Shown here piece by piece: positions 1 to 53,160 of a stretch of DNA of 64,000 nt (position 1 is the first letter of the stretch; every line of letters starts with the position of its first letter). A program made the translations under genes and the position numbers. The stretch is from an uncultured bacterium (GTDB lineage Bacteria > Krumholzibacteriota > Krumholzibacteriia > WVZY01): positions 26,003 through 90,002 of the forward strand of contig CAYXEN010000002.1 of assembly GCA_964464035.1 (NCBI GenBank), written 5' to 3'. The notes under the pieces were generated by a model. The model searched no databases, was not told the DNA's origin, and saw only the letters and a program-made list of their open reading frames with translations.

Positions 1-612
1 GAGAACGTTGCAGAAGACTCCGTATTCGCTCAAGATCCGCCAGAAACTCTTGCTCCTGCGGAGGAACCGCATGTTGCCTTTCTCGAGAGGTATGCGGGCG
101 GGTCCGAGCTTGAGGAATCTCTTGGGGCCGGTGACGCTGCTCGAAGAGAGGATGGGGGCGTAGCTTCGCGGGTCCCTCGAGAGGAAATCGAATATGGCAT
201 GGCGCGAGGCATCGACCCCGGTGCTGAAGGACGACCATGCGACGGGAGACATGGCGGGCACTGAAGTGCCGAGCCGCCTGAAGACACCCTGCTCCGCGAG
301 CCGCGAGAAGTTGGGCATCTCGCCCGCGGCCATGAGCCGCTCGCATATCGAGGGATCGAGACCGTCGAGCCCCAGGATGACGACTTTCTTCGCGCGCGGT
401 CTGCCGGGGATTTTCTTGTGCCTTATCTTGCGGATCAGCATCCGCAGGGGAAAAGTGAGGATGGCGAAGAAGGCGGCGAAAAACGCCATTATGAAAGTGA
501 GAAAGGACGAGACGAGGGCGAACCCGGCTCCCGGCCCGATGTAGGCCGAAGCGGGTCGCGCGAAGAAGAGGACCGCGATCGAAAGGGCGGCGGCCAGAGC
601 GGATCTTTCCAT
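1..612 (-). CDS. Alkaline-phosphatase-superfamily protein (type I phosphodiesterase/nucleotide pyrophosphatase-like), membrane-anchored; partial, C-terminal part lies beyond the window start
   Basis: Minus-strand ATG at 612, 7 nt downstream of the previous gene's stop. Own translation: MERSALAAALSIAVLFF...KKVVILGLDGLDPSICERLMAAGEMPNFSRL...GTSVPAMSPVAWSSFSTG. The GLDG and (S/T)VP motifs parallel the two downstream paralogs. Open to position 1; not in the ORF track because no stop lies in the window. Confidence 0.55.
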   Translation of the reverse strand, partial: MERSALAAALSIAVLFFARPASAYIGPGAGFALVSSFLTFIMAFFAAFFAILTFPLRMLIRKIRHKKIPGRPRAKKVVILGLDGLDPSICERLMAAGEMPNFSRLAEQGVFRRLGTSVPAMSPVAWSSFSTGVDASRHAIFDFLSRDPRSYAPILSSSSVTGPKRFLKLGPARIPLEKGNMRFLRRSKSFWRILSEYGVFCNVL

Positions 613-619
613 CGTCTGC

Positions 620-1936
620 CTAGATTTCAACACCCAAGCTCCTCATTATGATTCGCGGCACGTCCACTATATTCAGTTCGCCGGTGTCCTCCAGGAGAGC
701 GGGATCCAGGGAGCAGAAGAAAGCATTCTCCCACGTGTGCATCCCCTGAAGCCTTCGTTCGCCGCTCAGGTCACTGGAGCCCACCTTGCCCTTGAGGTCG
801 AAACCGTCGTGGGGCACCAGTACGAGATCCGGGCCCTCGTCCCGCAGCGGGCCCCGATAGGCTTCCTCGTTCGTGAAAGTGTATTTCACGACTTTTTCGC
901 CTTCCACGGTAAGGCCTTCGAAAACCTTCTTCATCTCGGCGACGAGAGCTCCGGCCTCGTCCGGTTCGACGGATCCGCGGGGAAACTTGCCCTTGCGGTT
1001 CAAATAGATCCGTGCCGGGTCGAGGGCGAAGGCTCGCGTGGCTTCGTCGATTTCGCCGAGATTGTTCTTGCCCGAAGGGAGCTTGAGGAGCCCCGCCTCG
1101 GCCAGGACGGTGTTCACGTAGACTTCGCGCCGCGTGCGGCAGAAACCGTGATCAGATAGGATGAAGAATCCTCCGTCCGGGTACTGCGAATTAAAGCGGT
1201 CGAAGATCCTGCCTATGAGCGCGTCGACGTTGGCGTAATATGCGAGGAAATCCGCATGGTGGGGATTGTCCTCGAACTCCCAGGCGTCCCACATGAAATG
1301 GTGGAGCCTGTCGGTGCCGGTTATGACGAACTCCATGAGGTTCCAGCTCTCCTTTTCCCAGAAGTAGTCGAGCGCCTTCTCTCTCTTCGCGAGGAGATCG
1401 TCGAGCGCCAGGAAGAGCTTTTCCGGGTCCCGCGCACACTCGTTCGTGTCGATGTCTATCTGGTAGCCCGCTTCGTTCAGGTAGGGAAGATGCATCGGCG
1501 GAGTGACCGACCGGCCGAGATCGATCGCCACGAAGCCCGATACGAGAACACCCGGTATCCGCCTGGCGGGATAGGTGGACGGCTGGTTTATGACGACGCT
1601 CTTCATCCCTTTCCCGCCGAGAACGTCCCATATCGTAGGCGTCCGCAGGTCGGAGAAGGAAGGGAAGCGGAGCGCGTAGGAACCCTTCTTGAGATCTGTG
1701 AAGCCGAAGATGCCGTGCTCGCCGGGATTCTTTCCCGTCATGAACGTGGACCAGCTCACCGACGATATCTCGGGCAACGTGACCGTCATGGCGGTTAGCT
1801 TCCCCTTGGATACGATCTCCCCGGTCCTTGGCATGACGCCGGCCTTGATCATCCACTCGAGAAGCGTGCATGGAACACCGTCCAGGCCGATGACGCAGGC
1901 GTGCTTGTCTTTTCGTTTGAATAATCTCAAGCCCAT
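620..1936 (-). CDS. Alkaline-phosphatase-superfamily protein (type I phosphodiesterase/nucleotide pyrophosphatase family)
   Basis: ORF 620..2026. Internal start MGLRLFKRKDKHACVIGLDG chosen to avoid overlap with cysC. Motifs: VIGLDG (metal Asp), TVTLPEIS (Ser/Thr nucleophile region), DRLHHFMW, ILSDHGF (metal His/Asp), typical of the NPP/AlkP core. Confidence 0.65.
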   Translation of the reverse strand: MGLRLFKRKDKHACVIGLDGVPCTLLEWMIKAGVMPRTGEIVSKGKLTAMTVTLPEISSVSWSTFMTGKNPGEHGIFGFTDLKKGSYALRFPSFSDLRTPTIWDVLGGKGMKSVVINQPSTYPARRIPGVLVSGFVAIDLGRSVTPPMHLPYLNEAGYQIDIDTNECARDPEKLFLALDDLLAKREKALDYFWEKESWNLMEFVITGTDRLHHFMWDAWEFEDNPHHADFLAYYANVDALIGRIFDRFNSQYPDGGFFILSDHGFCRTRREVYVNTVLAEAGLLKLPSGKNNLGEIDEATRAFALDPARIYLNRKGKFPRGSVEPDEAGALVAEMKKVFEGLTVEGEKVVKYTFTNEEAYRGPLRDEGPDLVLVPHDGFDLKGKVGSSDLSGERRLQGMHTWENAFFCSLDPALLEDTGELNIVDVPRIIMRSLGVEI

Positions 1937-1946
1937 GATTTGCGGA

Positions 1947-2549
1947 TTACAGGTATCCCAAGTCCTTGAGACGCGCCTTGATCTTCTCCTCTTCTTCCTG
2001 GGAGTACTCGCTCTCCGCCGAAGCACCGGGAACGAGCCCCATCAGTTCGAGCGTGCGGATGATCTTGGAAGTGCTCTCCTCGACGGACTCCTTGTCGGAC
2101 TCGATGAGGATCTCGGGGTTATCGGGTTCCTCGTAGGGATCGTCGACCCCGGTGAAGTTCTTGATCTCCCCCGCCAGCGCCTTCTTGTACATTCCTTTGA
2201 CGTCGCGCTCCTTCAAGACGTCGACGGGAGCCTTTACGTAGACTTCGACGAAGTTGTCGATCGAGTTGCGCACTTCGTCCCTAACCGCCTTGTAAGGGGA
2301 TATGGCGGCGGCTATAGCCGCGACGCCGTTGCGGCTGAGAAGCTTACAGACGTAGCCGATACGCTTTATGTTCGTATCCCTGTCTTCCTTGGAGAAGCCC
2401 AAGCCCTTCGATAGATTGGTCCTGACCTCGTCACCGTCGAGCAGCTCCACCTTCACCCCGCGTTCGAGAAGGATTTCCTCCACCTTCTTGGCGAGGGTGG
2501 ACTTGCCTGAACAGGGTAGCCCGGTGAACCACAATGTGAAGCCTTTCAT
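1947..2549 (-). CDS. cysC: Adenylyl-sulfate (APS) kinase
   Basis: 200 aa. P-loop GLPCSGKST. Whole-protein pattern of APS kinase (FTGVDDPYE, ISPYKAVRDEVR). Confidence 0.9.
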   Translation of the reverse strand: MKGFTLWFTGLPCSGKSTLAKKVEEILLERGVKVELLDGDEVRTNLSKGLGFSKEDRDTNIKRIGYVCKLLSRNGVAAIAAAISPYKAVRDEVRNSIDNFVEVYVKAPVDVLKERDVKGMYKKALAGEIKNFTGVDDPYEEPDNPEILIESDKESVEESTSKIIRTLELMGLVPGASAESEYSQEEEEKIKARLKDLGYL

Positions 2550-2595
2550 TTATCGATCCTCCTTGGTGGTTTGTCTCCGATCAGTTCGTCTGGTG

Positions 2596-3984
2596 CTACA
2601 AAACCCTTCCGATCATGTCCTCGGGGACGTCGATCGAGAAGAAATCCAGAATCGAGGGGGCGACGTCGTATATCGAAACCTTGAAATTCTCGTCCCTGCC
2701 GCCTTGGGCTTCCTTGCCCCGACCGCTCCATACGAAGATCCCTTCCTGTGCGTGATTGGCGTCGTCGGGACCTGTGTCGTTTTCGAATATGTGGATTCTC
2801 TTTTGCCCCACTGTTCCCGCGCTCCTCCAGTCCAGGTCGCCCAGGTAGACGATGAGGTCGGGAGCGATATTGTTCACTTCACGGTAGACTTCCGCGGGGC
2901 GGAAGACCTTGGTGCCGATACACTCGCCTTTCTCGTCGGTGATCGCCTCGAGCTTCTCCTGAAGCTCGTCGAGAAAAGCGGGGAACTCTCCGGAGGGAAT
3001 GACACCTTCAGGCTCGCGCCCCTGCACGTTGCAGAATATCCTCGCGTAGTAGCCTCCCTCTCCCCACACGCGCGTCTTCTTCCAGTCGATCATGCGGGGT
3101 TTGAGAGACTTGGGCTCGCCCGGATACTCCTTGAGCGCGAGCAGCCCTTGTTCGATGAAGAATTCGTTTATGCAGATCCCCCCGTGCATGGGCTTGGCTC
3201 CGTGGTCGGAGACGACGATCACGGACGTTGAGGGAGGCAGCACGTCCAGCGTCCTGCCGACTTCTTCGTCGAGGTAGAGGTAGTAATCGTGTATCACGTT
3301 CTCGAATTCGTTGCCTTTCTCGTAGAGACGGTGCGTGGGATCGCAGAAGCGCCAGAAAGCATGGTGAATGCGGTCGGGCCCCATTTCGACCATCATGGCG
3401 AAATCCCAGTCTTCGTTCTTGATGAGGTGTCGGTATACCTTGAAACGCCTCGCGGTCATCGTGTAAATCTGCTCGAGGAGCTCTTTCTTGGCGTTCGTGC
3501 GGAAGTTCTCAACGTCTATTATATAATCTCCGTCGGCCACGCGGTCGATCTCCCCGGCGAGCTCGGGCGGATACGTATACGTAACGTCCTTGTTGGGGGT
3601 GAGGAAGCTCGATACCATGAGCCCGTTCAAAGGCTTCGGCGGGTAAGTCTGCGGGACGCCCAGGAGGATCGAGCGCAGGCGGTTGCGCGAGAGATGGTTC
3701 CAGACGGTCTTGGCCTTGACCGCGTTGGCGTTTGCAAAGTACAGTTCCTCGTATTCGTGGCTCTTGCGGTTCCTGAAGCCGTAGAAGCCGAGCATCCCGG
3801 GATCCTTCGAGGTCATCATCGCCGTCCAAGCTGGAACCGTGATGGGAGGAACCGTGGAGACGAGGTTGCCCTTGATAGAGCCTTCCATCAGGCGCTTGAG
3901 ATTGGGCATCTCGTCGAGCCATTCACCGTAGAGCAACTGGGGGGTCAAGCAGTCGAGGCCGATTACGGCTAATTTGTCGGGCAC
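2596..3984 (-). CDS. Alkaline-phosphatase-superfamily protein (type I phosphodiesterase/nucleotide pyrophosphatase family), paralog
   Basis: 462 aa. AVIGLDCLTP, STVPPITVPAWTAMMTSKDPG, DRIHHAFW, VVSDHGA. Same architecture as 620..1936. Confidence 0.75.
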   Translation of the reverse strand: MPDKLAVIGLDCLTPQLLYGEWLDEMPNLKRLMEGSIKGNLVSTVPPITVPAWTAMMTSKDPGMLGFYGFRNRKSHEYEELYFANANAVKAKTVWNHLSRNRLRSILLGVPQTYPPKPLNGLMVSSFLTPNKDVTYTYPPELAGEIDRVADGDYIIDVENFRTNAKKELLEQIYTMTARRFKVYRHLIKNEDWDFAMMVEMGPDRIHHAFWRFCDPTHRLYEKGNEFENVIHDYYLYLDEEVGRTLDVLPPSTSVIVVSDHGAKPMHGGICINEFFIEQGLLALKEYPGEPKSLKPRMIDWKKTRVWGEGGYYARIFCNVQGREPEGVIPSGEFPAFLDELQEKLEAITDEKGECIGTKVFRPAEVYREVNNIAPDLIVYLGDLDWRSAGTVGQKRIHIFENDTGPDDANHAQEGIFVWSGRGKEAQGGRDENFKVSIYDVAPSILDFFSIDVPEDMIGRVL

Positions 3985-4007
3985 TTTTCCGTCCTTTGCG
4001 ATTCAAA

Positions 4008-5168
4008 TCACTTATTTGACAACGAAAAATAATAATCTTCCAGTTTCTTCGCAACCTCTTCCCTCGTGAACTCGGGCGGGAGTTTCTCGCCGCTGACGAG
4101 CATCTCGCGGACCTTCGTGCCGCTCAGGAACACCCTCTCCTCCTTGCCGTGCGGGCACGTCTTGAGCGAGCACATGCCTGCGCATTTGCGACAGTAGAAG
4201 GCATGTTCGAACATCATGGGAGTGATCTCCAGCTCGCCCGGTTCGAACTCGAGAAAGATCTTCTGGGCGTCATAGGTCCCGTAGTACGAGCCGACGCCGG
4301 CGTGATCGCGCCCGACTATGAAGTGAGTGCAACCGAAATTCTTGCGCAGGATCGCGTGGAAGATAGCCTCCCTGGGTCCGGCGTAACGCATGGCGGCGGG
4401 GAAGATGGACATGGTCACCCTTTCGCGGGGGAAGTAGTGTTTCATGACGGCGAGATAGCATTCCATCCTCACTTCGGCGGGAATGTCGTCAGACTTCGTC
4501 TCGCCCATGATCGGGTGAATGAGGAGTCCGTCGACGACCTCGAGCGCACACTTGATGAGGTACTCGTGGGCTCTGTGAATGGGATTCCTCGTCTGGAAAG
4601 CCACCACCCGGTCCCATCCCTTCGTCTTGAAGAGTATCCTCGTCTCCTTGGGATCCAGGTGATAGTTGGCGAAACGCTCGTCGACGTAGCGCTCGAACAG
4701 GGTTATCCTGCCGCCGACGTAGTGATCCCCGATGCTCTTAAGGTACTTGACTCCGGGGTGCGCGTCTTCCGTCGTGCGCAGGACCTTCTCGGCTTCACGC
4801 TCCTTGTCGAAGGCGTAGATCTCCTCCACTTCGATTAGGCCTCTTTGCACGCCGCGATCGTCCCTCAGCACGGCCTCGAAGGGAGGTTTCGGGTAGGACG
4901 ACGGATCCTTCTTCAAGGACAGGGTCACGGGAAGGGACCAGGGAAGGCCCTTGGGTAGGCGCATGCGCTCGACGACGCTTTCGTACTCGTCTCTCGTCAT
5001 GAAACCCTCGAGAGGGCTCATCGCGCCGTTGGCGATCAGAGTGAGATCGGAGAACTCGCGGTTGTTGAGCTCGATGACGGGGAGATCCTTGGCCTTGTTC
5101 GCGAGCTCGGATCTCAGCGTTTCATCCGCGGTCCTGTTGACGAGTCTTCCTCCGTGGGCCCTTATCAT
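4008..5168 (-). CDS. sat: Sulfate adenylyltransferase (ATP sulfurylase), homo-oligomeric type
   Basis: 386 aa. QTRNPIHRAHE and GRDHAGVG motifs. N-terminal PUA-like region. Confidence 0.9.
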   Translation of the reverse strand: MIRAHGGRLVNRTADETLRSELANKAKDLPVIELNNREFSDLTLIANGAMSPLEGFMTRDEYESVVERMRLPKGLPWSLPVTLSLKKDPSSYPKPPFEAVLRDDRGVQRGLIEVEEIYAFDKEREAEKVLRTTEDAHPGVKYLKSIGDHYVGGRITLFERYVDERFANYHLDPKETRILFKTKGWDRVVAFQTRNPIHRAHEYLIKCALEVVDGLLIHPIMGETKSDDIPAEVRMECYLAVMKHYFPRERVTMSIFPAAMRYAGPREAIFHAILRKNFGCTHFIVGRDHAGVGSYYGTYDAQKIFLEFEPGELEITPMMFEHAFYCRKCAGMCSLKTCPHGKEERVFLSGTKVREMLVSGEKLPPEFTREEVAKKLEDYYFSLSNK

Positions 5169-5518
5169 CTCAACCTCCCGGGATTATTTCGAAAACGCCC
5201 CGCTCCGGCGGGAATCCTGCATGAGCGGTTTTGCAGTCCCGTTCACTGGAAACTTGTTGATCTACGGGGACTTAAAACCAGGTCACCGATGGGATCCAGA
5301 ACTTCCTGAGGGGCGATTGGACTATCACTTCAGGCATTCTCTGCAATAGGTGATCTTGAAAGTAAAATGATATTCCAGAATGACTTGATTTGCAAGGACT
5401 TTATTAGTCCGCGATCTTTCGCCGGGGCCCGGCGGGGGAAATCTCTTTAAGCATGCGTATGATTTATGCTAGTTTCCAGTCTCGCACGCGACATCGGGTA
5501 CGAGCGGAGAGAAACCCT

Positions 5519-6484
5519 ATGAGAAAGATCGTCTCTTTCATCCTTCCTTTCATAGGATTGGCCATATTCGCATACATCATCCACGCGACGGGGTGGGGCA
5601 GGATAATCGACGCCTTCAAGCGCATGCGTCCCGCCAAGCTGTACCTGATGCCTCTCTTCGTGGCTTTCATAATCCTGATCCGGGGCTATCGCTGGCAGTA
5701 CCTGATGCGCATGCTTGGCATAGACTACTCGCTGTGGCGAAGCAATGTGGTCTGGACCATCGGATTCTTCGCCGCCGCGGTGACCCCGGGCAAGGTCGGT
5801 GACGCGCTCCGGGCCTTCTACGTCAGCAACGAGACCGGCAGGAACTTCGGGGAGTGTTTTCTGAGCGTCTTCATGGACAGGCTGCTCGACCTGATCGTAG
5901 TCGTTCTCTTCGGCGTCGTCACGATAATCGTTTTCTCCCATTACTACATGCAGCTTCCTTCGCTGTGGATAATCTTCGCTTGTGTAGCGGGGTTGCTCGC
6001 TCTCATCGTCGCGGCCCTCTACCGCGACCTGATGAAAAAGCTGCTCAAACCTGTTTTCAACGTCCTCGTTCCCAAGAAATACAAGGAGAGCGCCTCACTG
6101 AATTTCAACGCCTTCTACGATGCCCTGGCGTCCTACGTCAAGAATTGGAAAGGCGTGATGAAGGCCTTTCTCTTGACCGTGGTCTACTGGGTGGTGGTGT
6201 TCGTTCTGGCCTATTATACGGCCTATGTCATGGATACCGGCGTCTCCTTCTCGTATCTCTTCATCATCATGCCGGTCGTCACCCTGGTCGAACTCATTCC
6301 GATATCGCTTTCCGGGCTTGGAACCAGGGAGGCCACGGTGATAAAATTCTTCCAGGTGGTGGGAATTTCGCAGGCCGGCGCCGTCGGTTTTTCCATAGCC
6401 TATCTTCTCCTCGGGACGTATCTGACAGCGCTCATAGGTTTCTTTCTCTGGCTGAAGTACCCTGCGAAATTGACCGGCGATTAG
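5519..6484 (+). CDS. Flippase-like / lysylphosphatidylglycerol-synthase-TM-like (UPF0104) integral membrane protein
   Basis: Multi-TM ORF. N-terminal KIVSFILPFIGLAIFAYII...GWGRII. Conserved charged motifs in loops (RGYRWQYL, GKVGDALRAFY). GGAGAG RBS before ATG 5519. Confidence 0.55.
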   Translation: MRKIVSFILPFIGLAIFAYIIHATGWGRIIDAFKRMRPAKLYLMPLFVAFIILIRGYRWQYLMRMLGIDYSLWRSNVVWTIGFFAAAVTPGKVGDALRAFYVSNETGRNFGECFLSVFMDRLLDLIVVVLFGVVTIIVFSHYYMQLPSLWIIFACVAGLLALIVAALYRDLMKKLLKPVFNVLVPKKYKESASLNFNAFYDALASYVKNWKGVMKAFLLTVVYWVVVFVLAYYTAYVMDTGVSFSYLFIIMPVVTLVELIPISLSGLGTREATVIKFFQVVGISQAGAVGFSIAYLLLGTYLTALIGFFLWLKYPAKLTGD

Positions 6485-6575
6485 GGACGGCCCGACGGAG
6501 CGCCTAAGTCGTGGAAACGGCGCGGCGGCTACGCGGGAACGGTGCGCGGTATCGAAGGATCCCGGCAGCACGACC

Positions 6576-7979
6576 ATGACGACGTTTGCAGGAGCCACGG
6601 GCATGGGCGAGAGACCCCAATGGCAGAATGAGATCCTCGAGGAAGGCGAACTGTACCTGGTCGGCGGGGTGGTGAGGGACGGCGTGATGGGAGGCAGGGG
6701 AGGGAGCGAGGACTACGACTACGTCGTGACGGGAATCGATCCGCGGAGGCTCGAGGATATCCTGGGAAGACACGGCGAAGTGCGCTTCGTCGGCAGGTCG
6801 TTCGGCGTATACAAGTTCACGCCGGCGGGCGAGTCGGCCTCGCTGGACGTGGCTTTTCCGCGCCGGGAAACCTCCACCGGGCCCGGTCACAAGGATTTCG
6901 AAGTCGATTGGGACTGGAGGCTCCCGATAGAGGCGGATCTGGAGAGGCGCGATTTCACGATGAACGCGATGGCGCTCAGCATTAGAGACGGGAAGTTGAT
7001 CGATCCCCTGGGGGGAAGGGATGATATCGAGCGCCGGCTCGTGAAGATGGTTTTCCCCGAAGCCTTCAAGGAGGATTCCCTCCGGATCCTTCGCGGAATC
7101 CGGTTCGCCGCGCGCTTCGAATTCGACATCGATGCGGCCACGAGAGGGGCGATGATCGAAGCGGCTCGGCTGATCCGTTTCTTGAGCCCGGAAAGGATAC
7201 AGGAAGAACTGTCCCGCTTGCTCACGCAATGCGCCAAGCCGAGCGTCGGCTTCATGGAGATGCACGAGATCGGTGTATTGAAGATCATCCTTCCCGAGCT
7301 CGACAGGTGCGCCGGCGTCGCCCAGAACGAGTTTCACCCCGACGACGTGTTCATGCACAGCCTCAAGACGTGCGACTGTGCGCCGCGGGACAACCTCGCG
7401 GTGAGATGGGCGGCCCTGCTTCACGACGTGGGCAAGGTGGACAAGAAACAAAAAATAAGAGACGAGCATACGGGGGAAGAACGTATCGTCTTCTACCAGC
7501 ACGAAAAACTGAGCGCCGAAGCCACGGAGACGGTCCTCAAGCGGCTGCGCTACGGCAAGGCTCTTGTCGAGAAGTGTCGGAACCTCGTACTCAATCACAT
7601 GTTCAATTATGAGAGCGAATGGGGAGAGAGCGCCGTCCTGAGATTCATCCGGCGGGTCGGCGAAGACGGGATCGGCGATCTCATGGCCCTACGCAGGGCG
7701 GATTGCGGATCGCGCAACCTTGCGGGGGAAGCGGAGAAACTCGCGGAATTCGAAAAGCGTATAGACGAAGTCCTGGAAGAACAGCGGGCGTTTTCGCTGG
7801 AGGACCTCGCGATAGACGGGCGGACGGTCATGAATGTCCTCGGGATCGAAGAGGGCCCCGAAGTCGGCAGGATCCTGGAAGAGATCCTCGAGGAAGTCAT
7901 CGGGAACCCCGCTTTGAACACGAGACGAAAACTCAAGGCGCTGATGAAGAAGAAGTACGCAAAAAGAAAGCCCCTGTAA
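6576..7979 (+). CDS. cca: CCA-adding tRNA nucleotidyltransferase with HD domain
   Basis: GGVVRD...DYD polymerase-beta head motif. RRDFTMNAMA. HD domain HDVGK. Alternative start at 6603 possible. Confidence 0.8.
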   Translation: MTTFAGATGMGERPQWQNEILEEGELYLVGGVVRDGVMGGRGGSEDYDYVVTGIDPRRLEDILGRHGEVRFVGRSFGVYKFTPAGESASLDVAFPRRETSTGPGHKDFEVDWDWRLPIEADLERRDFTMNAMALSIRDGKLIDPLGGRDDIERRLVKMVFPEAFKEDSLRILRGIRFAARFEFDIDAATRGAMIEAARLIRFLSPERIQEELSRLLTQCAKPSVGFMEMHEIGVLKIILPELDRCAGVAQNEFHPDDVFMHSLKTCDCAPRDNLAVRWAALLHDVGKVDKKQKIRDEHTGEERIVFYQHEKLSAEATETVLKRLRYGKALVEKCRNLVLNHMFNYESEWGESAVLRFIRRVGEDGIGDLMALRRADCGSRNLAGEAEKLAEFEKRIDEVLEEQRAFSLEDLAIDGRTVMNVLGIEEGPEVGRILEEILEEVIGNPALNTRRKLKALMKKKYAKRKPL

Positions 7980-8001
7980 GCGGTGTCAGGGGTATTCTTT
8001 T
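7971..8001 (+). terminator. Rho-independent terminator after cca
   Basis: CCCCTG-taagcggtgt-CAGGGG stem-loop followed by TATTCTTTTT. The cca stop codon lies in the loop. Confidence 0.55.
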
Positions 8002-8175
8002 TGGAAAAGTGGTTGAAAGGATTCAACGTTCCAAAAAGTCGAGTAAGTCAATGGGGCAAAACTGACTTACAGAGGCTTTCAATGCAAAGCTACTAATTGA
8101 GTGCTGATCTTGTCAACGATTTTATTGGTTGTTCCGGAGAGGCATTCGTCATAGAGTGCTGCCAGCCGGGCGGCC

Positions 8176-8514
8176 GTGTTTGCCAAAAAGGGGCTCATGC
8201 ATATGGACGACGATGTGTTCATCTCCAAGCTCAACGAGATCACCAGAGAGTACAGGCTCAAGCTCCCGATCCTCGAAGGCGGCAGGGAGCCCAAGGGCAG
8301 TGAACTCGAGGTCTGGGCACGGTTCTTCGAGCTGTGCCTCAAGAAGGGCATATCACTTGGGGACCAGAGGTGGAAGCGCGTGAAGATGGAAACGAGCGGC
8401 TCGAGGGCCGTGTTCTCCCTGGAGGGCGCGAGGGCGGAGGCCGCCGACTCGGATTTCCGAGTAGGGTTGAAGCTGCTCCTGAGCCTTTTCGGCGAGGGCA
8501 GAAGCGGGCAATAA
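8176..8514 (+). CDS. Hypothetical protein
   Basis: 112-aa ORF with strong GC3 codon bias matching neighbouring genes. No recognisable motif. Competing antisense ORF 8079..8351 judged less likely. Confidence 0.35.
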   Translation: MFAKKGLMHMDDDVFISKLNEITREYRLKLPILEGGREPKGSELEVWARFFELCLKKGISLGDQRWKRVKMETSGSRAVFSLEGARAEAADSDFRVGLKLLLSLFGEGRSGQ

Positions 8515-8716
8515 ACACCGCCAAATAGTCGTAATTCCTGCCAATATTACAGCATCAAATGAGGGGGTCAATGCCCCGAAGGTGCATGTGGATTCTTAAC
8601 TTGTTTTGTTTCTTTGGGTTGTATATATATCCCGACTTGGCACGTGCATTGATTAACTCAAGTCGAATAGCATCTGCAAGATGACTGTTTGAAGAATCTA
8701 CAAGAAAGGGTGATGA

Positions 8717-10651
<1,935 letters not shown>

Positions 10652-10725
10652 TCTCGCGGAGGCGCGCAAGAACAGCCTCGGCTGATGCGCCGCGGAACGA
10701 ATGGACGCGGCAAACCGATTTATGC

Positions 10726-10754
10726 TTGACCCTGACGCCTGGAGCTTATTAATC
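10726..10754 (+). promoter_or_regulatory. Candidate sigma-70 promoter for tRNA-Val
   Basis: TTGACC ... TATTAA / TTAATC about 25-50 nt upstream of the tRNA 5-prime end. Spacing is ambiguous (15-17 nt). Confidence 0.3.
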
Positions 10755-10777
10755 TACTCAAAGTAAGCTCGATAGGT

Positions 10778-10854
10778 GGGCGATTAGCTCAGTTGGTTAG
10801 AGTGCCTGCTCGACACGCAGGAGGTCACTGGTTCAAATCCAGTATCGCCCACCA
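10778..10854 (+). tRNA. tRNA-Val (anticodon GAC)
   Basis: Cloverleaf: acceptor GGGCGAT/ATCGCCC, D-arm GCTC/GAGT, anticodon stem CCTGC/GCAGG, loop TCGACAC, T-arm ACTGG-TTCAAAT-CCAGT, encoded CCA. Position 33 is C rather than U. Confidence 0.8.
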
Positions 10855-10856
10855 TT

Positions 10857-10876
10857 TCTATTCGATTCTATTCGAT
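10857..10876 (+). repeat. Perfect 10-nt tandem duplication (TCTATTCGAT x2) immediately 3-prime of tRNA-Val
   Basis: Read directly from the sequence. Confidence 0.5.
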
Positions 10877-10908
10877 GAAGCACAGTCCCAAAGAGGCGCG
10901 CCGCAATC

Positions 10909-12831
10909 ATGACAGTCATAATAATGCCGGACGGCTCGGAGAATGCTTTCGAAGCCGAGAAGGTACCCGTTAGCGAAGTGGTCGCTTCTCTCGGCGAGAG
11001 GTGGAAGCGGGAAGCCGTCGCGGTAAAGTTCGCCGGCGAGGTGTTCGACCTCCACCAGTCGATCACCGGCAGGGGCGAATTCAGGGTTCTCACGGCAAAG
11101 GACCCCGAGAGTCTCCCCGTTCTCCGCCACACTGCTTCGCACCTTCTCGCCTATGCGGTGAAGTCCCTCCACCCGGACGCGAAGCTCGGTATCGGCCCTC
11201 CCATCGAGGATGGATTCTATTACGATTTCGATGTGAGCACACCCTTCACCCCCGATGACCTTGCCGGCATCGAGAAGAAGATGGCGGAATTGCTCGCCGC
11301 CAAGCCCGGGATCCGCCGCGAAGTGTGGGATCGCAAGAAGGCGATCGAGTTCTTCGGTGCCAGGGGTGAGGATTACAAGGTCGAATTGATCGAGGATCTT
11401 CCCGACGAGAGGGTTTCGATCTACTTCCTGGGTGACTTCGTGGATCTTTGCGCGGGGCCGCATCTAGGCGAGGTCAAGTGGCTCAAGGCGCTCAAGATCC
11501 TCTCCTCCGCGGGAGCCTACTGGCGGGGGGATTCCAAGAGGCCGATGCTCCAGCGGATCTATGCCACGGCGTATTTCAAGAAGAAGGATCTCGACGAGTA
11601 TCTGAAGCGCAGGGAAGAAGCGGAGAAACGGGATCACCGCAAGCTGGGAAAACTTCTCGATCTTTTCGACGTGAACGAGGAGGCGGGAGGCGGTCTCGTC
11701 TTCTGGAATCCGAAGGGCGCCGTCGTCAGGGACGTCATCGAGCGTTACTGGAAACGCGAGCACATCGAGCGCGGGTACGAGCTGGTTTTCACGCCGCATA
11801 TCGCCCGCGCGGGACTGTGGCGTACGTCCGGACACTACGACTATTACCGGGAAAACATGTACACGATGGACGTCGACGGGCAGGAGTTCGTGCTGAAGCC
11901 GATGAACTGCCCCGGACACATCCTCATCTACAAGCGAAGACTCTACAGCTACCGGGAACTTCCCGTCCGCTTCGCCGAGATGGGGACGGTCTACAGGCGC
12001 GAGCTGTCGGGGACGTTGCACGGTCTGCTCAGGGTGCGGGGGTTCACGCAGGACGACGCGCATATCTTCTGTACCCACGAACAGGTGCACGAAGAAGTGG
12101 ACGGGACCCTTTCCTTCGCAATGGACATGCTCCGGGCGATGGGATTCGAAGAGTTCAAGATAGAGCTGAGCGTTCGCAGTCCCGGCGACCGGGACAAGTA
12201 CGCGGGGAGCGACGAGGAGTGGGAAATGGCTGAAAGCGCCCTGGAGGCGGCTGTCGAGAGGAAGGGGCTCCAGTACAAGCGGATGGAAGGCGAGGCGGTC
12301 TTCTACGGCCCCAAGATCGACATCAAGGTGATCGATGCAATCGGGCGCTCGTGGCAGCTGAGCACCGTTCAGTTCGATTTCAACCTGCCCAAGCGGTTCG
12401 ACGTCACATACGTATCCCGGAGCGGAGAACGCCTGCAGGTGTACATGGTCCACAGGGCGCTCCTGGGATCCCTGGAGAGGTTCATGGGCATCCTGACCGA
12501 GCACCATGCCGGGGCGTTTCCTCTCTGGCTCGCCCCGGTGCAGTGCATCGTTCTCCCGGTGGGCAAGGCCAGCCATTCGTACGCGCTGTCCACCTTGGAG
12601 GAGCTCCGGAGGGAGGGAATCCGCGCCGATATAGACATGCGCGAGGAGAAGATCGGCTACCGGATAAGAGACGCCGAGATGCAAAAAATCCCCTACATGC
12701 TGGTGGTCGGCGAGCGGGAGGCTGAGAGCCGAGCGGTGGGCGTGCGAAAGAGGGGCGAAGGCGACTTGGGGAGCAGGAGCCTCCAAGAAGTAATGACGGA
12801 AATAGTTGACGCGGCCAAGCCGAAGTATTAA
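10909..12831 (+). CDS. thrS: Threonyl-tRNA synthetase
   Basis: 640 aa. N-terminal TGS domain, class II motifs (FRNE-like, HRALLGS), C-terminal anticodon-binding domain. Confidence 0.95.
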   Translation: MTVIIMPDGSENAFEAEKVPVSEVVASLGERWKREAVAVKFAGEVFDLHQSITGRGEFRVLTAKDPESLPVLRHTASHLLAYAVKSLHPDAKLGIGPPIEDGFYYDFDVSTPFTPDDLAGIEKKMAELLAAKPGIRREVWDRKKAIEFFGARGEDYKVELIEDLPDERVSIYFLGDFVDLCAGPHLGEVKWLKALKILSSAGAYWRGDSKRPMLQRIYATAYFKKKDLDEYLKRREEAEKRDHRKLGKLLDLFDVNEEAGGGLVFWNPKGAVVRDVIERYWKREHIERGYELVFTPHIARAGLWRTSGHYDYYRENMYTMDVDGQEFVLKPMNCPGHILIYKRRLYSYRELPVRFAEMGTVYRRELSGTLHGLLRVRGFTQDDAHIFCTHEQVHEEVDGTLSFAMDMLRAMGFEEFKIELSVRSPGDRDKYAGSDEEWEMAESALEAAVERKGLQYKRMEGEAVFYGPKIDIKVIDAIGRSWQLSTVQFDFNLPKRFDVTYVSRSGERLQVYMVHRALLGSLERFMGILTEHHAGAFPLWLAPVQCIVLPVGKASHSYALSTLEELRREGIRADIDMREEKIGYRIRDAEMQKIPYMLVVGEREAESRAVGVRKRGEGDLGSRSLQEVMTEIVDAAKPKY

Positions 12832-12919
12832 TATAGCGTGCACAAGCAGGGGATTCTCCCCTCACCTGCCGTCGAGTCGATTGGTAAGGTTTCTGTTTGC
12901 CGAAGTGTGTCGTATGCGA

Positions 12920-12946
12920 ACGGATGCCTGCCATCCGTTTTTTTTG
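12920..12946 (+). terminator. Intrinsic terminator / possible infC-leader attenuator
   Basis: CGGATG-cctgc-CATCCG hairpin followed by 8 T. Located between the thrS stop and the infC RBS (AGGAGG at 12955-12960). Confidence 0.5.
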
Positions 12947-12970
12947 TTTCAAACAGGAGGTTTGTGGAAT

Positions 12971-13573
12971 ATCGCTAGAACGTTTCGTATCCGGGTAAAT
13001 CGCCAGATAAGAATCCCGGAAATAAGGCTGATAGACGAAGAAGGGAATCAACTCGGCATCATGCCGACGTCCAAGGCCCTGGAGATGGCGATGGAAAGGG
13101 GTTACGACCTCGTGGAGATTGCCCCGCAATCGCGGCCGCCGGTATGCCGGATCATGGATTTCGGCAAATACAAGTACGAGTTGAAGAAGAAGCTCAAGCA
13201 ATCCAAGAAGAAGCAGCACGTAATTCACGTAAAAGAGATAAAGTTCAGGCCGAAAACCGAGGAACACGATTACCAGTTCAAGAAGCGTCACGCCGAGGAG
13301 TTTCTCGGGAAGAACGACAAGGTCAAGTTCACCGTCATTTTCAGGGGACGGGAACTCAGTCACAAGGAGCTGGGCGAAAGAATTCTCACGAGAATCAAAG
13401 AGGAGCTGAGCGATATCGGGGTGGTTGAGAAAGACGTCTCCTTCGAGGGGCGAATAATGACCCTCATCATGGCCCCCATCGCCGGCAAGGAGAAGCAGGT
13501 CAAGAGCGAGGGCGGGCAAGCCGCGGCCGAAGAGAGCAAGGAAGGTAACGATGCCGAAACTGAAGAGCAATAG
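12971..13573 (+). CDS. infC: Translation initiation factor IF-3, probable non-AUG (AUC/UUG) start
   Basis: Translation (I)[30 protein letters not shown]...[15 protein letters not shown]...VKEIKFRP matches IF3 end to end. No in-frame ATG follows the AGGAGG RBS. In-frame TTG at 12962 and ATC at 12971. Confidence 0.75.
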
Positions 13574-13748
13574 AGGAGCGAGAAAGAGGTTTCGTGTGAC
13601 GGGAACCGGGAAGATCGCCCGCAACCACGCGTACAAGAGTCACATCCTGACCAAGAAAAGCTCCAAACGCAAGCGCAAGCTCGGCAAGAGCGCCCTGGTC
13701 GACGGAGCCAACATGCGCAGCGTCAAGCGCATGCTCCTTTGCAAGTAG
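13551..13748 (+). CDS. rpmI: Ribosomal protein L35
   Basis: [22 protein letters not shown]... 65 aa, AAGGAAGG RBS. Overlaps the infC end. Confidence 0.9.
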
Positions 13749-13820
13749 CGGCGGATCCGAACCGCGACTCGAGACTGGAAATCCGGGAACGAATACTATG
13801 AATACAAGGAGGTAGTCGTC

Positions 13821-14183
13821 ATGCCCCGCACCAAGAACAGCGCCGCCAGCAGGGAGAGGCGAAAGAAATATCTAAAGGCCGCGAAAGGCTTTTACGGCGG
13901 AAGATCGAAGCTCTACCGCACGGCACGCGAGAGCGTCGAGCGGGCGTGGACCTACGCCTACAGGGACAGGAAGCAGCGCAAGAGGGATTTCCGGAAGCTC
14001 TGGATCGCCCGGATCAACGCGGCCGCCAGGCTGAACGGATTGTCGTATAATCGCTTCATCTGCGGGCTCAAGAAAGCCGACGTCGAGATCAACCGCAAGA
14101 TGCTCGCCGAGATGGCGGTCAACGACGAGCAGGGTTTCAAGGAGCTGGCCGAGATGGCCAAGGAGGCCGTGAAGGCATCCTAG
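13821..14183 (+). CDS. rplT: Ribosomal protein L20
   Basis: [26 protein letters not shown]..., AAGGAGG RBS. Confidence 0.95.
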
Positions 14184-18458: not shown

Positions 18459-18646
18459 AATTCCCTACCATGTTCGTGATGGAGTGGTGATTATTGAGCC
18501 AACACCTGGTACGTAGGAAGCCCAAATCAAGTTTGTGATGTCATGCCCCCGAGCCGGGGAAGACAGAGCTTGCTTTGAGGGCATCCACTTGAAATATCAG
18601 GTTCAACAGTTCCCTACACACGGCATAGAGTGGGGAATTTTCTTTT
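18459..18646 (+). ncRNA. ssrS: 6S RNA (SsrS) candidate, about 188 nt
   Basis: Sits immediately downstream of zapA, the conserved zapA-ssrS arrangement. The 5-prime end AAAUUCCC pairs with the 3-prime end GGGGAAUUU to form a closing stem. It shares blocks with E. coli 6S: 5-prime ...AUGUUCG..., central CUUGAA...GGUUCAA...CGGCAU. Ends in a hairpin plus U-run. Flanking ORFs in this region are implausible Arg/Gly-rich frames. Confidence 0.6.
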
Positions 18647-20346: not shown

Positions 20347-21129
20347 GTGAGAATAGCTTTTTTCGGTGACGTGGTCGGCAGGCCCGGGCGCCGGGCGGTC
20401 GAGAAATTCATTCCTTTGGTGCGAGAAAAATTCGGTTGCGAAATCATGATTGCAAACGTGGAGAACGCGGCCGGGGGCATCGGCATCACGGAGAAAGCCT
20501 ACAGGGAATTGTCCGGAGCCGGGCTTCATTTCATGACTACGGGCAATCACGTCTGGGACAAGAAGGAAGGCGTCGCGATACTGGACAGGATGAGCGACAT
20601 CGTGCGCCCTGCGAATTATCCCCCTTCGGCTCCGGGCCGCGGGTTCGGATTCGTGGAGACGAAGGAATACAGGATAGCGGTTCTCAACATCCAGGGACGG
20701 GTCTTCATGCCGCCGATCGACTGTCCCTTCCGGACGGCGGACGCGTGCCTGGAAAGCATCTCCAAGGAAGCAGACATCATCGTGGTCGATTTCCACGGCG
20801 AGGCCACGAGCGAAAAGATAGCGATGGGCTGGCACCTGGACGGCAAAGTATCCCTTCTCGTGGGAACGCACACGCACGTTCCCACATGCGATCACCGGCT
20901 CCTGCCCGGCGGAACCGGCTACGTCACCGACATCGGAATGACCGGAGCGTACGATTCGGTCCTCGGAGTTCAGAAGGATGCGGTCTTGGACAGGTTCATC
21001 ACCATGCGACCGGTGCGCTTCTCCGTAGCCAGGAAAGACGTCCGTAGCGACATATTGATTGCGGAGATAGACGAGTCGAGCGGCAGAACCGTGAGCTTGA
21101 AGCACACCCAGATGAAAATGGAGGAATGA
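20347..21129 (+). CDS. ymdB: YmdB-like metallophosphoesterase (2',3'-cyclic-nucleotide phosphodiesterase family)
   Basis: MRIAFFGDVVGRPGR...TGNHVWDKKE...VDFHGEATSEK...GTHTHV, the TIGR00282 pattern. Directly follows rny as in Bacillus. Confidence 0.85.
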   Translation: MRIAFFGDVVGRPGRRAVEKFIPLVREKFGCEIMIANVENAAGGIGITEKAYRELSGAGLHFMTTGNHVWDKKEGVAILDRMSDIVRPANYPPSAPGRGFGFVETKEYRIAVLNIQGRVFMPPIDCPFRTADACLESISKEADIIVVDFHGEATSEKIAMGWHLDGKVSLLVGTHTHVPTCDHRLLPGGTGYVTDIGMTGAYDSVLGVQKDAVLDRFITMRPVRFSVARKDVRSDILIAEIDESSGRTVSLKHTQMKMEE

Positions 21130-23230: not shown

Positions 23231-23444
23231 TTTCGAAGAATCCATGCGGAAGCTGGAGGCGGTGGTGGAGCAGCTCGAAAAGGGTGACTTCACGCTCGAG
23301 GAATCGCTGGAGAAATTCGAGGAAGGACTCGCTCTGGGAAAGCGATGCAGGGAGATCCTCGAAAAAGCCCGGGCGAGGGTGAAAAAGATCGTGGAAGACA
23401 GCGAAGGTGAAGCGGAGGAAAAGGACGTAAGCGATGAGTTCTGA
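23211..23444 (+). CDS. xseB: Exodeoxyribonuclease VII small subunit
   Basis: 77 aa. SFEESMRKLEAVVEQLEKGDFTLEESLEKFEEG. Confidence 0.85.
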   Translation: MAEKKDSFEESMRKLEAVVEQLEKGDFTLEESLEKFEEGLALGKRCREILEKARARVKKIVEDSEGEAEEKDVSDEF

Positions 23445-26748: not shown

Positions 26749-26767
26749 ATTGAAGGCGGGTGAGGAA

Positions 26768-29355: not shown

Positions 29356-29418
29356 CTCAGTGGATAGAGCACCGGCCTCCGGAGCCGGGTGCCGCAGGTT
29401 CGAATCCTGCCGGGCGCA
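29346..29418 (+). tRNA. tRNA-Arg (anticodon CCG)
   Basis: Acceptor GCGCCCG/CGGGCGC, D-arm GCTC-AGTGGATA-GAGC, anticodon stem CCGGC/GCCGG with loop CTCCGGA, T-arm GCAGG-TTCGAAT-CCTGC. CCA not encoded. The 5-prime end overlaps the recN stop. Confidence 0.85.
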
Positions 29419-53133: not shown

Positions 53134-53160
53134 CCTTACGAGCTAGCCGGACCATTGGAC

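Follow-up and report, generated by a model that had tools for sequence, protein, structure and literature searches.

Our results identify a bacterial operon, conserved in well over a dozen phyla, that couples the sulfate-activation enzymes Sat (ATP sulfurylase) and CysC (APS kinase) to four paralogous enzymes of the alkaline phosphatase (AlkP) superfamily, AlkA to AlkD. The operon looks like an undescribed route for envelope sulfation, and we tentatively favor a model in which a dedicated PAPS supply feeds a membrane-spanning envelope-sulfation pathway with AlkA as its PAPS-handling hub. We found no literature on this operon or system.

Results

The window, i.e., the whole stretch of 64,000 nucleotides that was analyzed, begins with five co-directional minus-strand genes, sat, alkA, cysC, alkB, and alkC, situated where a first-pass annotation of the DNA had described a tightly spaced operon; the intergenic gaps of 23, 46, 10, and 7 nt from sat to alkC confirm that this observation is real. 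The features are as follows.

1..612, minus strand: alkC, membrane-anchored paralog of 689 aa, of which only the N-terminal 204 aa fall within the window
385..612, minus strand: alkC anchor region, kept in homologs of several phyla
620..1936, minus strand: alkB, cytosolic NPP-like paralog, 438 aa, ATG start at 1936, PF01663
1947..2549, minus strand: cysC, APS kinase with C-terminal extension, 200 aa, PF01583
1950..2015, minus strand: shared C-terminal tail of CysC, ESEYSQEEEEKIKARLKDLGYL
2596..3984, minus strand: alkA, cytosolic NPP-like AlkP-fold enzyme, 462 aa, GTG start, PF01663
4008..5168, minus strand: sat, ATP sulfurylase, 386 aa, first gene of the operon, PF14306 and PF01747
5169..5452, no strand: divergent intergenic region with a sigma70-like promoter on the minus strand at 5395-5367
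5453..6484, plus strand: divergent gene for a flippase-like membrane protein (LPG_synthase_TM), PF03706 (E 3e-43), JGI start at 5519

The sigma70-like site is the candidate promoter of the operon; no terminator-like site lies within the operon on the minus strand, and no riboswitch or other Rfam match lies upstream of sat. A sister contig (L081, 99.9% identical) shows that the operon runs on beyond the window edge with alkD, encoding an exported fourth paralog, a gene for a 64-aa ribbon–helix–helix (RHH) protein, and c4, encoding a 274-aa DUF106/EMC3-like membrane protein. The three paralogs originally described are thus those within the window, while their actual number is four. Besides alkD, points that go beyond the first-pass annotation are the DUF106-like protein, the predicted placement of AlkC and AlkD on opposite membrane faces, and a shared C-terminal tail.

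Sat belongs to the ATP sulfurylase family by its PF14306 (PUA_2) and PF01747 domains and by its scores against NF003166 (536 bits, cutoff 387) and TIGR00339 (418 bits, cutoff 323), and CysC is an APS kinase (PF01583, E 1e-61; NF002059, 265.5 bits, cutoff 244). When CysC was compared with 24 solved APS kinases, the best-matching stretch stopped at or before query residue 179, and none of the 24 matched its extra tail of ~22–28 aa.

Profile searches, which the first-pass annotation had proposed as a means of choosing among PF01663, PF00884, and PglZ, place the paralogs in PF01663 (cutoff 23) and in its NPP-like branch, with 154 bits for AlkA (E 8e-45), 125 for AlkB (E 5e-36), 50 for the AlkC N-terminus (E 5e-13 for the part in the window), and 118 for AlkD. 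Scores against PF00884 (21.3 and 17.4 bits) fall under the cutoff of 25, and no paralog matches PglZ (PF08665) at E<=0.01. None has the C/S-x-P-x-R motif of formylglycine (type I) sulfatases, the nucleophile position being occupied by Thr/Ser. AlkC and AlkD lack the combination of a multi-span N-terminal domain and PF00884 typical of LtaS and EptA, and the AlkP fold of the Alk proteins separates them from PAP phosphatases of the CysQ or PHP type. No operon protein matched a Pfam or NCBIfam sulfotransferase model. Searches of the PDB with the paralog sequences gave no significant match, and the match to a well-characterized family that would have explained the paralogs otherwise was found for none of the four.

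In AlkA, the candidate metal ligands are D11, D204, H208, D260, H261, and H411 and the candidate nucleophile is T49. This two-metal set (Asp; Asp-x3-His; Asp-His; His) with a Ser/Thr nucleophile is invariant across 19 AlkA homologs and present in all four paralogs, as had been noted for the first three, the C-terminal ligands of AlkC being visible on L081 only. The nucleophile aligns with the Ser of ENPP6, the Thr of PhnA, and the Cys of sulfatases, and the paralogs look catalytically competent. AlkA is unusually conserved for a protein with listed homologs from many phyla (62–82% identity among them) and has many invariant Arg residues. Its AF2 model is poor at residues 45–50 and 61–90, around the nucleophile loop; its nearest structural relatives are hydrolases of phosphoanhydride or phosphoester bonds (NPPs, PafA, and PhoK). 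AlkB, 28% identical to AlkA, carries the motifs GLDG, SSVSW, DRLHH, SDHG, and GMH and has relatives in 1163 representative clusters at E<=1e-30.

AlkC and AlkD are 40% identical, have in common an insertion of ~200 aa, and combine the PF01663-type domain with a hairpin anchor or signal anchor. The AlkC anchor runs from a signal-like segment ending in ASA through an invariant transmembrane helix (YIGPGAGFA...SSF) and a K/R-rich stretch to the catalytic LGLDG, a conserved N-out/C-in type that by the positive-inside rule predicts a cytoplasmic catalytic domain. AlkD bears a lipobox, Tat, or Sec signal, so that the two proteins probably sit on opposite membrane faces, the AlkC side by this topology prediction.

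Among the 63 species-level alkA loci with usable flanks, sat and/or cysC adjoin alkA in 37, and both do so in 21; AlkB is confined to loci that also hold cysC (21/21). This adjacency is far above chance, a random gene pair being expected in ~0.3% by our estimate. The full order sat-alkA-cysC-alkB-alkC-alkD-RHH-c4 recurs in genomes labeled Latescibacterota, Krumholzibacteriia, Eisenbacteria, Armatimonadota, Schekmanbacteria, and others. The gene-neighborhood comparison suggested at first pass therefore shows the sat-AlkP-cysC adjacency to be kept in related genomes and across many phyla. The possibility that unrelated genes are juxtaposed here by chance can be practically dismissed given the same gene order and shared tail in these 37 independent loci.

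The C-terminal extension of CysC ends in a consensus, ...EEEExxIKxRLxxLGYI, that we refer to as the LGY tail. It ends CysC in 39 of 41 alkA loci with CysC and ends AlkA instead in 8 loci lacking a tailed CysC; in no locus is it on both, and it is never on Sat. The tail also terminates small partner proteins and other AlkP-fold proteins, and it was observed at C-termini 115 times where 1.4 were expected. It is docking-like and system-specific, and we infer that it docks CysC to the AlkP machinery. Its presence on CysC, and never on Sat, suggests that CysC and its product PAPS, rather than the PPi made by Sat, are tied to the AlkP proteins. We know of no counterpart to the combination of this tail with genomic coupling to sat and cysC.

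Among the neighboring genes, those for polyprenyl-phosphate glycosyltransferases, sugar kinases, and flippase-like proteins are overrepresented. The PF03706 protein (TIGR00374, 104 bits, cutoff 43) is a divergent neighbor in 13 fetched loci, comprising 7 of 80 genome loci plus annotated sister contigs. In some loci, the operon starts with a PpgS/AglJ-like polyprenyl-phosphate GT2 plus DUF2304, while in the window itself no GT2 adjoins it; other envelope-glycan neighbors are a GT-C PMT_2 gene, HddA-like GHMP kinases, GT4, Wzx, and Bac_transf genes. A PHP-domain protein adjoins alkA or cysC in 6 loci, and its best solved match is 2yb1 (E 2e-38), the pAp phosphatase Cv1693. This neighbor points to turnover of PAPS to PAP and to removal of PAP by a protein other than AlkA. 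c4, with 85 homologs found, falls in the DUF106/EMC3 group of the Oxa1 superfamily by profile and fold similarity to Ylp1, EMC3, or TMCO1.

In line with the first-pass annotation, no cysH, cysDN, or sulfite reductase gene, and no sulfotransferase gene, was matched among ~35 of the ~60 large window ORFs or in the Pfam tables of loci L081–L088. Sulfotransferase families were likewise absent from the 25 commonest Pfam families in a census of 122 nearest neighbors; these genomes may carry a canonical sulfotransferase gene at another site. The accompanying proposal that the PAPS made here serves a purpose other than assimilation is plausible given the lack of cysH and sulfite reductase, the glycan and lipid-carrier neighbors, and the CysC tail.

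Discussion

What our model takes directly from the sequences is a conserved gene order, a fold with its active-site residues, signals for export, and a common C-terminal tail; from these we infer a cytoplasmic position for the catalytic domain of AlkC, a docking interaction, a substrate, a sulfuryl-transfer chemistry, and a role for each paralog. Sat would make APS and CysC would make PAPS, a dedicated supply hard-wired to NPP-like AlkP-fold enzymes, of which AlkA and AlkB would be cytosolic, AlkC tethered at the inner membrane face, and AlkD exported as a lipoprotein or by Tat or Sec, in the company of c4 and the flippase-like protein. The LGY tail would dock CysC onto the AlkP machinery, with AlkA as the simplest partner and the direct handler of PAPS. 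The Thr/Ser nucleophile at the two-metal center would accept a sulfuryl (or phospho-sulfuryl) group and transfer it to an acceptor, which may be the phosphate of the carrier or else a precursor, either a sugar or one linked to polyprenyl phosphate. AlkC would work on the lipid-linked form in the inner leaflet, the intermediate would be flipped, and AlkD would finish or trim the transfer outside, the end product most likely being a sulfated envelope lipid or lipid-linked glycan.

The tight operon with its conserved order, the kept active sites, the tail on CysC, the export signals, the envelope-glycan and PHP neighbors, and the fusion of an AlkB homolog to a PF01507 PAPS-reductase-family domain all suggest envelope sulfation, as do the lack of sulfotransferase families in the scanned loci and of a riboswitch upstream of sat. 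Also in favor, extra PAPS genes within a glycan cluster have been described as a hallmark of sulfated polysaccharide synthesis (PMC11641403). The likeness extends to clusters that join PAPS supply to a sulfotransferase, such as cysDNC in sulfated capsule loci, where a sulfate-activation pair likewise lies amid envelope or glycan tailoring genes. Accessory clusters of this kind include nodPQ-nodH and raxPQ-raxST. The present loci differ in having, where examined, no canonical sulfotransferase, the position of the expected consumer being taken by AlkP-fold enzymes. Against envelope sulfation count the hydrolytic nature of the nearest structural relatives, the high conservation of AlkA, which suits a universal small substrate (PPi, PAP, or PAPS) no less than a glycan acceptor, and the ~40% of alkA loci without sat or cysC nearby, including a variant (L046, L071, and L077) that keeps alkA-alkC-alkD-c4. 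Moreover, we know of no Ser/Thr-nucleophile enzyme of the AlkP superfamily that acts as a PAPS-dependent sulfotransferase and of no sulfated product from these mostly uncultured lineages.

In its most specific form, which we regard as doubtful, the model makes the AlkP paralogs sulfuryl-transferring enzymes of a new class, which act via a covalent sulfo-Ser/Thr intermediate at the two-metal center and generate a lipid-linked sulfate donor. Tail-docked CysC would hand PAPS to AlkA, AlkC would charge a polyprenyl-phosphate carrier in the inner leaflet with sulfate or with a sulfated sugar, the PF03706 protein or the DUF106-like protein would flip the carrier, and exported AlkD would move the group to an envelope acceptor. 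With such a donor, molecules could be sulfated beyond the cytoplasm, in compartments devoid of PAPS.

The chief rival, which we consider somewhat unlikely, is that cytosolic AlkA and/or AlkB remove PPi, pulling the unfavorable sulfurylase step, and/or PAP, substituting for CysQ, such that sat-alkA-cysC-alkB would form a self-sufficient PAPS cassette for CysH or sulfotransferases encoded elsewhere. Cleavage of phosphoanhydride and phosphoester bonds by NPPs, PafA, and PhoK supports this idea, as do the positions of alkA directly after sat and of alkB directly after cysC, the suitability of a universal small substrate to a protein as conserved as AlkA, and its invariant Arg residues, which could bind polyanions. 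Many loci consist of sat-alkA-cysC only, with no obvious acceptor genes, and the PF01507 domain of the AlkB fusion scores best against FAD synthase, an enzyme class that releases PPi. However, Sat never bears the docking-like tail that CysC has, so that channeling of PPi from Sat is not what is organized, and the pAp-phosphatase-like PHP protein beside alkA in 6 loci would make AlkA redundant as a PAP phosphatase. AlkA also persists without sat, without cysC, or without both, always with glycan or lipid genes, and two membrane-associated paralogs on predicted opposite faces, together with flippase-like and DUF106-like proteins, would be left unexplained. The relation to NPPs and their relatives (Xac NPP, ENPP4/6/7, PafA, PhoK, and PhnA; PF01663) is itself distant, at only 14–17% identity to the paralogs; classical NPPs are secreted or ecto-enzymes, whereas AlkA and AlkB are cytosolic, and further differences lie in the ~200-aa insertion of AlkC and AlkD, the LGY tail, and the linkage of the genes to sat and cysC.

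It is distinctly unlikely, in our view, that the paralogs are instead phosphotransferases or phosphatases whose substrates are sugar phosphates or glycans linked to polyprenyl-(pyro)phosphate, with a mode of action like that of LtaS, EptA, or GmhB, with Sat and CysC merely co-regulated and an unlinked canonical sulfotransferase sulfating the same glycan. Several arrangements fit this alternative: an AlkP–kinase–AlkP order in which the kinase is CysC or a GHMP sugar kinase; sulfatase-fold proteins of the Thr type with transmembrane anchors, similar to LtaS/EptA, which stand in for cysC-alkB in some loci and bear the LGY tail; an alkB-like gene just after a Bac_transf priming transferase in Desulfovibrio inopinatus; and two PF01663 genes within a NeuB/CMP-sugar cluster. 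To our knowledge, all membrane-associated AlkP-fold transferases move phospho-groups. LtaS, EptA/MCR-1, OpgB, and BcsG resemble the paralogs in their Thr/Ser nucleophile, metal center, covalent intermediate, and membrane action on envelope polymers; they belong to the PF00884 type, have N-terminal domains that span the membrane several times, and draw on phospholipid donors outside the cell, whereas AlkC and AlkD are of the PF01663 type, each with a single anchor and probably on opposite faces. A direct coupling to PAPS is favored instead by the specific association with sat and cysC across phyla and by the tail that CysC has in common with AlkP proteins, and no sulfotransferase is near the loci with Pfam tables or among the commonest neighbor families. 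That exported AlkD, and possibly AlkC, frees sulfate from environmental esters for import and activation by Sat and CysC is very improbable, as the formylglycine motif and a PF00884 score above threshold are absent from the paralogs, the operon holds no sulfate transporter, and cytosolic AlkA and AlkB and the CysC tail would be left unexplained. Of the activities put forward at first pass, namely hydrolysis of PPi or PAP, processing of APS or PAPS, and action on a sulfated product, our computation narrows to no single one.

The neighboring genes offer a further parallel. In the three-component systems for periplasmic glycosylation (ArnC/ArnEF/ArnT and PpgS/Rv3779), the constituents are of the kinds that also flank the operon in this lineage (GT2 with DUF2304, PF03706, and PMT_2 GT-C), although GT2, flippase, and GT-C genes are not in every alkA locus; we know of no such system with sat, cysC, or AlkP-fold enzymes. 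Within the Oxa1 superfamily (DUF106/Ylp1 MJ0480, EMC3, TMCO1, and YidC), DUF106 has been described as archaeal and eukaryotic (PMC5868721), whereas c4 is bacterial, carries an inserted beta-rich domain of ~110 aa, and lies within an enzyme operon.

How bacteria sulfate their envelope molecules is poorly charted. The PAPS-dependent sulfotransferases known to us all share one fold, while here gene order across phyla and the shared tail couple a dedicated PAPS supply to enzymes of another superfamily. If the Alk proteins turn out to be only clean-up hydrolases, they would still represent non-orthologous substitutes for CysQ or pyrophosphatase in phyla that are largely uncultured. If they move sulfate, they would define a new enzyme class, give a function to thousands of genes named "alkaline phosphatase family protein", and provide a possible answer to how extracytoplasmic molecules get sulfated.

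Operon architecture

Five co-directional genes occupy the minus strand at window positions 1–5168 in the order sat, alkA, cysC, alkB and alkC, where alkA to alkC, together with alkD beyond the window, denote four paralogs of the AlkP fold (PF01663). From sat to alkC, the gaps between them are 23, 46, 10 and 7 nt, and no terminator-like site was found on the minus strand within this block. A sigma70-like promoter lies at 5395–5367 upstream of sat, where a search for riboswitches and leader RNAs gave none. The first-pass annotation had described a sat–cysC operon interleaved with three AlkP-like paralogs, and the gene layout, the spacing, the NCBIfam scores of Sat and CysC and the PF01663 matches confirm this description.

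Features of the operon and its surroundings (window positions unless contig L081 is named)
5453–6484, divergent, upstream of sat: flippase-like LPG_synthase_TM protein (PF03706, E 3e-43)
4008–5168, minus: sat (NCBIfam score 536, cutoff 387)
2596–3984, minus: alkA, AlkP-fold, GTG start, PF01663
1947–2549, minus: cysC (NCBIfam score 265, cutoff 244)
1950–2015, minus: LGY tail on CysC, C-terminal, ESEYSQEEEEKIKARLKDLGYL
620–1936, minus: alkB, second AlkP-fold gene, PF01663, start at the ATG at 1936
1–612, minus: alkC, first 204 codons, cut by the window edge, PF01663
385–612, minus: AlkC anchor, a signal-like segment ending AxA, then the YIGPGAGFA...SSF transmembrane helix, a K/R-rich stretch and the catalytic domain
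L081, after alkC: alkD, fourth paralog, 660 aa
L081 17403–17597, after alkD: RHH-like protein, 64 aa, weak ribbon-helix-helix match
L081 17611–18435, beyond the window's left edge: c4, 274-aa membrane protein, operon end
L081, after c4, convergent: PMT_2 (GT-C) glycosyltransferase

The rest of the operon is carried by the JGI sister contig L081, which is 99.9% identical to window 1–13948. The sole structural difference is a 20-nt indel within the alkC membrane anchor (window 412–448, L081 13501–13517), explained by strain variation or by an assembly error; it shifts the frame of the anchor in L081, for which the JGI call gives an alkC product of 596 aa. Joining the L081 remainder to the window's intact N-terminus gives a full alkC of 689 aa. 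The public gene call for alkA, of 450 aa, begins too late to include the conserved Asp ligand of GLDC, while the GTG at 3984 (region 3949–3984) yields a 462-aa AlkA, the form common to homologues.

Conservation of the module

AlkA homologues number in the thousands, the best 120 being 62–82% identical and labelled as several candidate phyla. A scan with one genome per species gave 591 relatives, from which 80 loci were kept; these were compared by tblastn with the window proteins. Among the 63 loci with usable flanks, sat and/or cysC adjoin alkA in 37, and both do so in 21. Going by record title, such loci carry more than a dozen labels, including Latescibacterota, Krumholzibacteriia, Eisenbacteria, Poribacteria, Acidobacteriota, Armatimonadota, Thermodesulfobacteriota, Chloroflexota (Anaerolineae, Ktedonobacteraceae), Verrucomicrobiota, Zixibacteria, Schekmanbacteria, Planctomycetota and Hydrogenedentota. 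AlkB is present in 21 loci, all 21 of which have cysC. The genes alkC and alkD travel together with those for the small RHH protein and c4; one arrangement places this set behind sat–alkA–cysC–alkB, and in three loci (L046, L071, L077), which lack sat and cysC, it follows alkA and a sulfatase-fold protein with a transmembrane anchor. AlkA is the sole universal member of the module. The complete gene order recurs on annotated sister contigs. That the operon is real and conserved is firmly established, and we reject chance adjacency as an unlikely explanation.

Family and active sites of the AlkP-fold paralogs

AlkA and AlkB are 28% identical, and AlkC and AlkD, both with an insertion of ~200 residues, are 40% identical. 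The three Alk products in the window score well over the threshold for PF01663 and under that for PF00884 (sulfatase). All four paralogs retain the GLDG/GLDC Asp, a Thr/Ser at the nucleophile position, D-x3-H, SDHG and a late His, so that four NPP-like paralogs with intact active sites in one operon are firmly established. In a profile of the alkA family, T49 falls in the same column as the nucleophilic Ser of ENPP6, the nucleophilic Thr of PhnA and a sulfatase's formylglycine Cys. This profile gave marginal matches only against the PDB, where a sequence search with alkA returned no match and one with alkB returned PhnA only (E 0.006, at the N-terminus). No NCBIfam family scored over cutoff for any Alk protein, and confidence in the AF2 model is low for residues 45–50 and 61–90. 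Judged by sequence, the Alk proteins are NPP-like AlkP-superfamily members without a characterised close relative.

Three other assignments were rejected: formylglycine sulfatases, because the C/S-x-P-x-R signature is absent from all four paralogs; PglZ proteins, because the Alk products gave no Pfam match to that family; and periplasmic phosphate-scavenging phosphatases, because no signal sequence was found in AlkA or AlkB.

A shared C-terminal tail

CysC of the window extends past every solved APS kinase, and past the family models, by a C-terminal LGY tail with the consensus (Y/F)(S/T)xEEEExx(I/V)(K/R)x(R/K)LxxLGY(I/L/M/V). Altogether, 115 ORFs end in this tail where 1.4 are expected, and tailed ORFs occur in 70 of 90 loci. 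Among alkA loci the tail ends CysC in 39 of 41 cases, and it ends 32 of 35 small proteins, namely the 64-aa RHH-like protein and a 72–80-aa ORF upstream of sat in relatives. It also ends a verrucomicrobial AlkA-like protein of 571 aa, Thr-type LtaS-like proteins, an AlkB–PF01507 fusion and a tandem AlkP protein; it was never found on Sat, AlkB, AlkC, AlkD, c4 or the flippase-like protein. Among alkA orthologues its distribution is exclusive: loci combining an untailed alkA with cysC have a tailed CysC in 37 of 38 cases, the eight loci with a tailed alkA have no cysC (seven) or an untailed one (one), and both proteins are never tailed in one locus.

That CysC and AlkP-family proteins have a common, system-specific tail is firmly established. 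We infer a putative docking peptide or membrane-targeting helix that would physically integrate CysC into the AlkP system, and the two small tailed proteins may be regulators or adaptors using the same docking tail. The 72–80-aa ORF (L084 8602–8820; L087 8577–8795) had no counterpart on the minus strand of the window.

Placement at the inner membrane

The YIGPGAGFA...SSF helix of the AlkC anchor is nearly invariant, its pattern is kept from Latescibacterota to Dadabacteria, and we know of no described sorting motif that resembles it. The positive-inside rule would put the catalytic domain of AlkC in the cytoplasm. The N-terminus of AlkD differs between lineages: many have a lipobox, one has a twin-arginine signal, and that of the window has a signal of the Sec type. 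Taken together, these patterns suggest that AlkC and AlkD, the most similar paralogs, lie on either side of the inner membrane, which the Alk paralogs would straddle.

The operon-end protein c4 is a bacterial DUF106/EMC3/TMCO1-like protein (Oxa1 superfamily) with an inserted beta-rich domain, and only 85 homologues were found in a collection of 5.8 billion proteins. The literature places DUF106 in archaea and eukaryotes (PMC5868721), and YidC has been described as both an insertase and a lipid scramblase (PMC11997395).

Neighbouring genes

Counted by Pfam family, the 122 nearest neighbours outside the core are headed by GT2 glycosyltransferases (9), proteins of the sulfatase fold (8), additional PF01663 genes (7), GHMP kinases (5), epimerases (4) and GT4 glycosyltransferases (4), and no sulfotransferase family was among the 25 families listed. 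Because their nucleophile motif is W-T-L-P-A, the sulfatase-fold neighbours examined are not formylglycine enzymes. At the operon head, close relatives have DUF2304 plus a GT2 gene, whose best match is to polyprenyl-phospho-sugar synthases (PpgS, AglJ), and in cultured Desulfovibrio inopinatus an alkB-like gene follows a Bac_transf priming transferase. A PHP-domain protein adjoins alkA or cysC in six loci (L010, L022, L030, L040, L047, L051); among solved structures it matches 2yb1 best (E 2e-38), the pAp phosphatase Cv1693.

An HddA-like GHMP kinase stands beside alkA in Verrucomicrobia and Ktedonobacteraceae (L033, L041, L042, L050, L078 and related loci): immediately 3' of alkA in the former and near the alkA–cysC–sat block in the latter. 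The verrucomicrobial AlkP–kinase–AlkP layout mirrors alkA–cysC–alkB. Locus L050 has the order fused sat/cysC, alkA, GHMP kinase and acetyltransferase, with HlyD, OEP and Wzx farther on.

Among the best 150 AlkB representatives there was no CysC–AlkB fusion, and the single informative fusion joins AlkB to PF01507, a PAPS-reductase-family domain. In this protein (P0225, L089 10001–12124) the PF01507 part scores best against FAD synthase, and the gene belongs to a NeuB/CMP-sugar/radical-SAM glycan cluster, where another PF01663 gene is also found.

Other features of the window

An exosortase/PEP-CTERM-type exopolysaccharide locus, in which no sulfotransferase was matched (30–53 kb), encodes GGDEF, UDP-glucose dehydrogenase, epimerase, Poly_export, Wzz/GNVR, two GT4, Wzy_C, exosortase EpsH, DUF3485, TPR and Bac_transf proteins. 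Five large ORFs have no Pfam match, some of which may be wrong-strand artefacts of high G+C.

Features outside the operon
10778–10851 and 29346–29418: two tRNA genes
18459–18640: 6S RNA, 80 bits
30164–53068: exopolysaccharide locus, with EpsH at 43896–44747
53155–55218: PAS histidine kinase, after the exopolysaccharide locus
21126–22178 (plus), 22133–23539 (minus), 24865–26892 (minus), 40779–41927 (plus), 55340–56209 (minus): large ORFs without Pfam match

Discussion

The LGY tail is on CysC and not on Sat, some loci have a separate pAp-phosphatase-like gene, the surrounding genes concern glycans and lipid carriers, and close by we saw neither a sulfotransferase nor cysH nor a sulfite reductase. 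We therefore suggest that the sat–cysC–Alk module makes PAPS for its own use and consumes it internally, and that its end product is sulfated, either an envelope lipid or a lipid-linked glycan. As the only universal member, and one that is tailed in eight loci where CysC is not, AlkA is the most promising candidate for handling PAPS. Sulfuryl transfer via a Ser/Thr–metal centre is chemically plausible in the AlkP superfamily; to our knowledge, PAPS-dependent transfer by such a centre has no precedent. The overall model, in which AlkA handles the module's own PAPS for envelope sulfation, is one that we put forward tentatively.

The main rival, in which AlkA and AlkB do no more than hydrolyse PPi or PAP, suits both the usual chemistry of the fold and the strong conservation of AlkA, but leaves the membrane paralogs, the tail pattern and the alkA loci without sat and cysC unexplained, and we consider it less likely. 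Less probable still is a phosphoester or lipid-carrier role of the Alk proteins with sulfation taking place elsewhere. Sulfate scavenging is unlikely for a module whose paralogs are free of the sulfatase signature.

Known clusters such as nodPQ–nodH and raxPQ–raxST combine PAPS supply with a sulfotransferase. The operon logic of the sat–cysC–Alk module resembles theirs and that of cysDNC in sulfated-capsule loci, with the difference that AlkP-fold enzymes here hold the place of the sulfotransferase. The co-location seen in such known loci has been called a hallmark of sulfated polysaccharide synthesis (PMC11641403). In membrane placement the module is like LtaS/EptA-type transferases and GT2/flippase/GT-C systems, but it lacks the features that define either group. 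A full-text literature search found no publication describing a sat–AlkP–cysC cluster, nor did a search of the literature on bacterial DUF106 proteins. We regard the cluster as a dedicated PAPS-supply and tailoring operon that, as far as this search shows, was previously undescribed, and it may hide a categorically new class of sulfotransferase.
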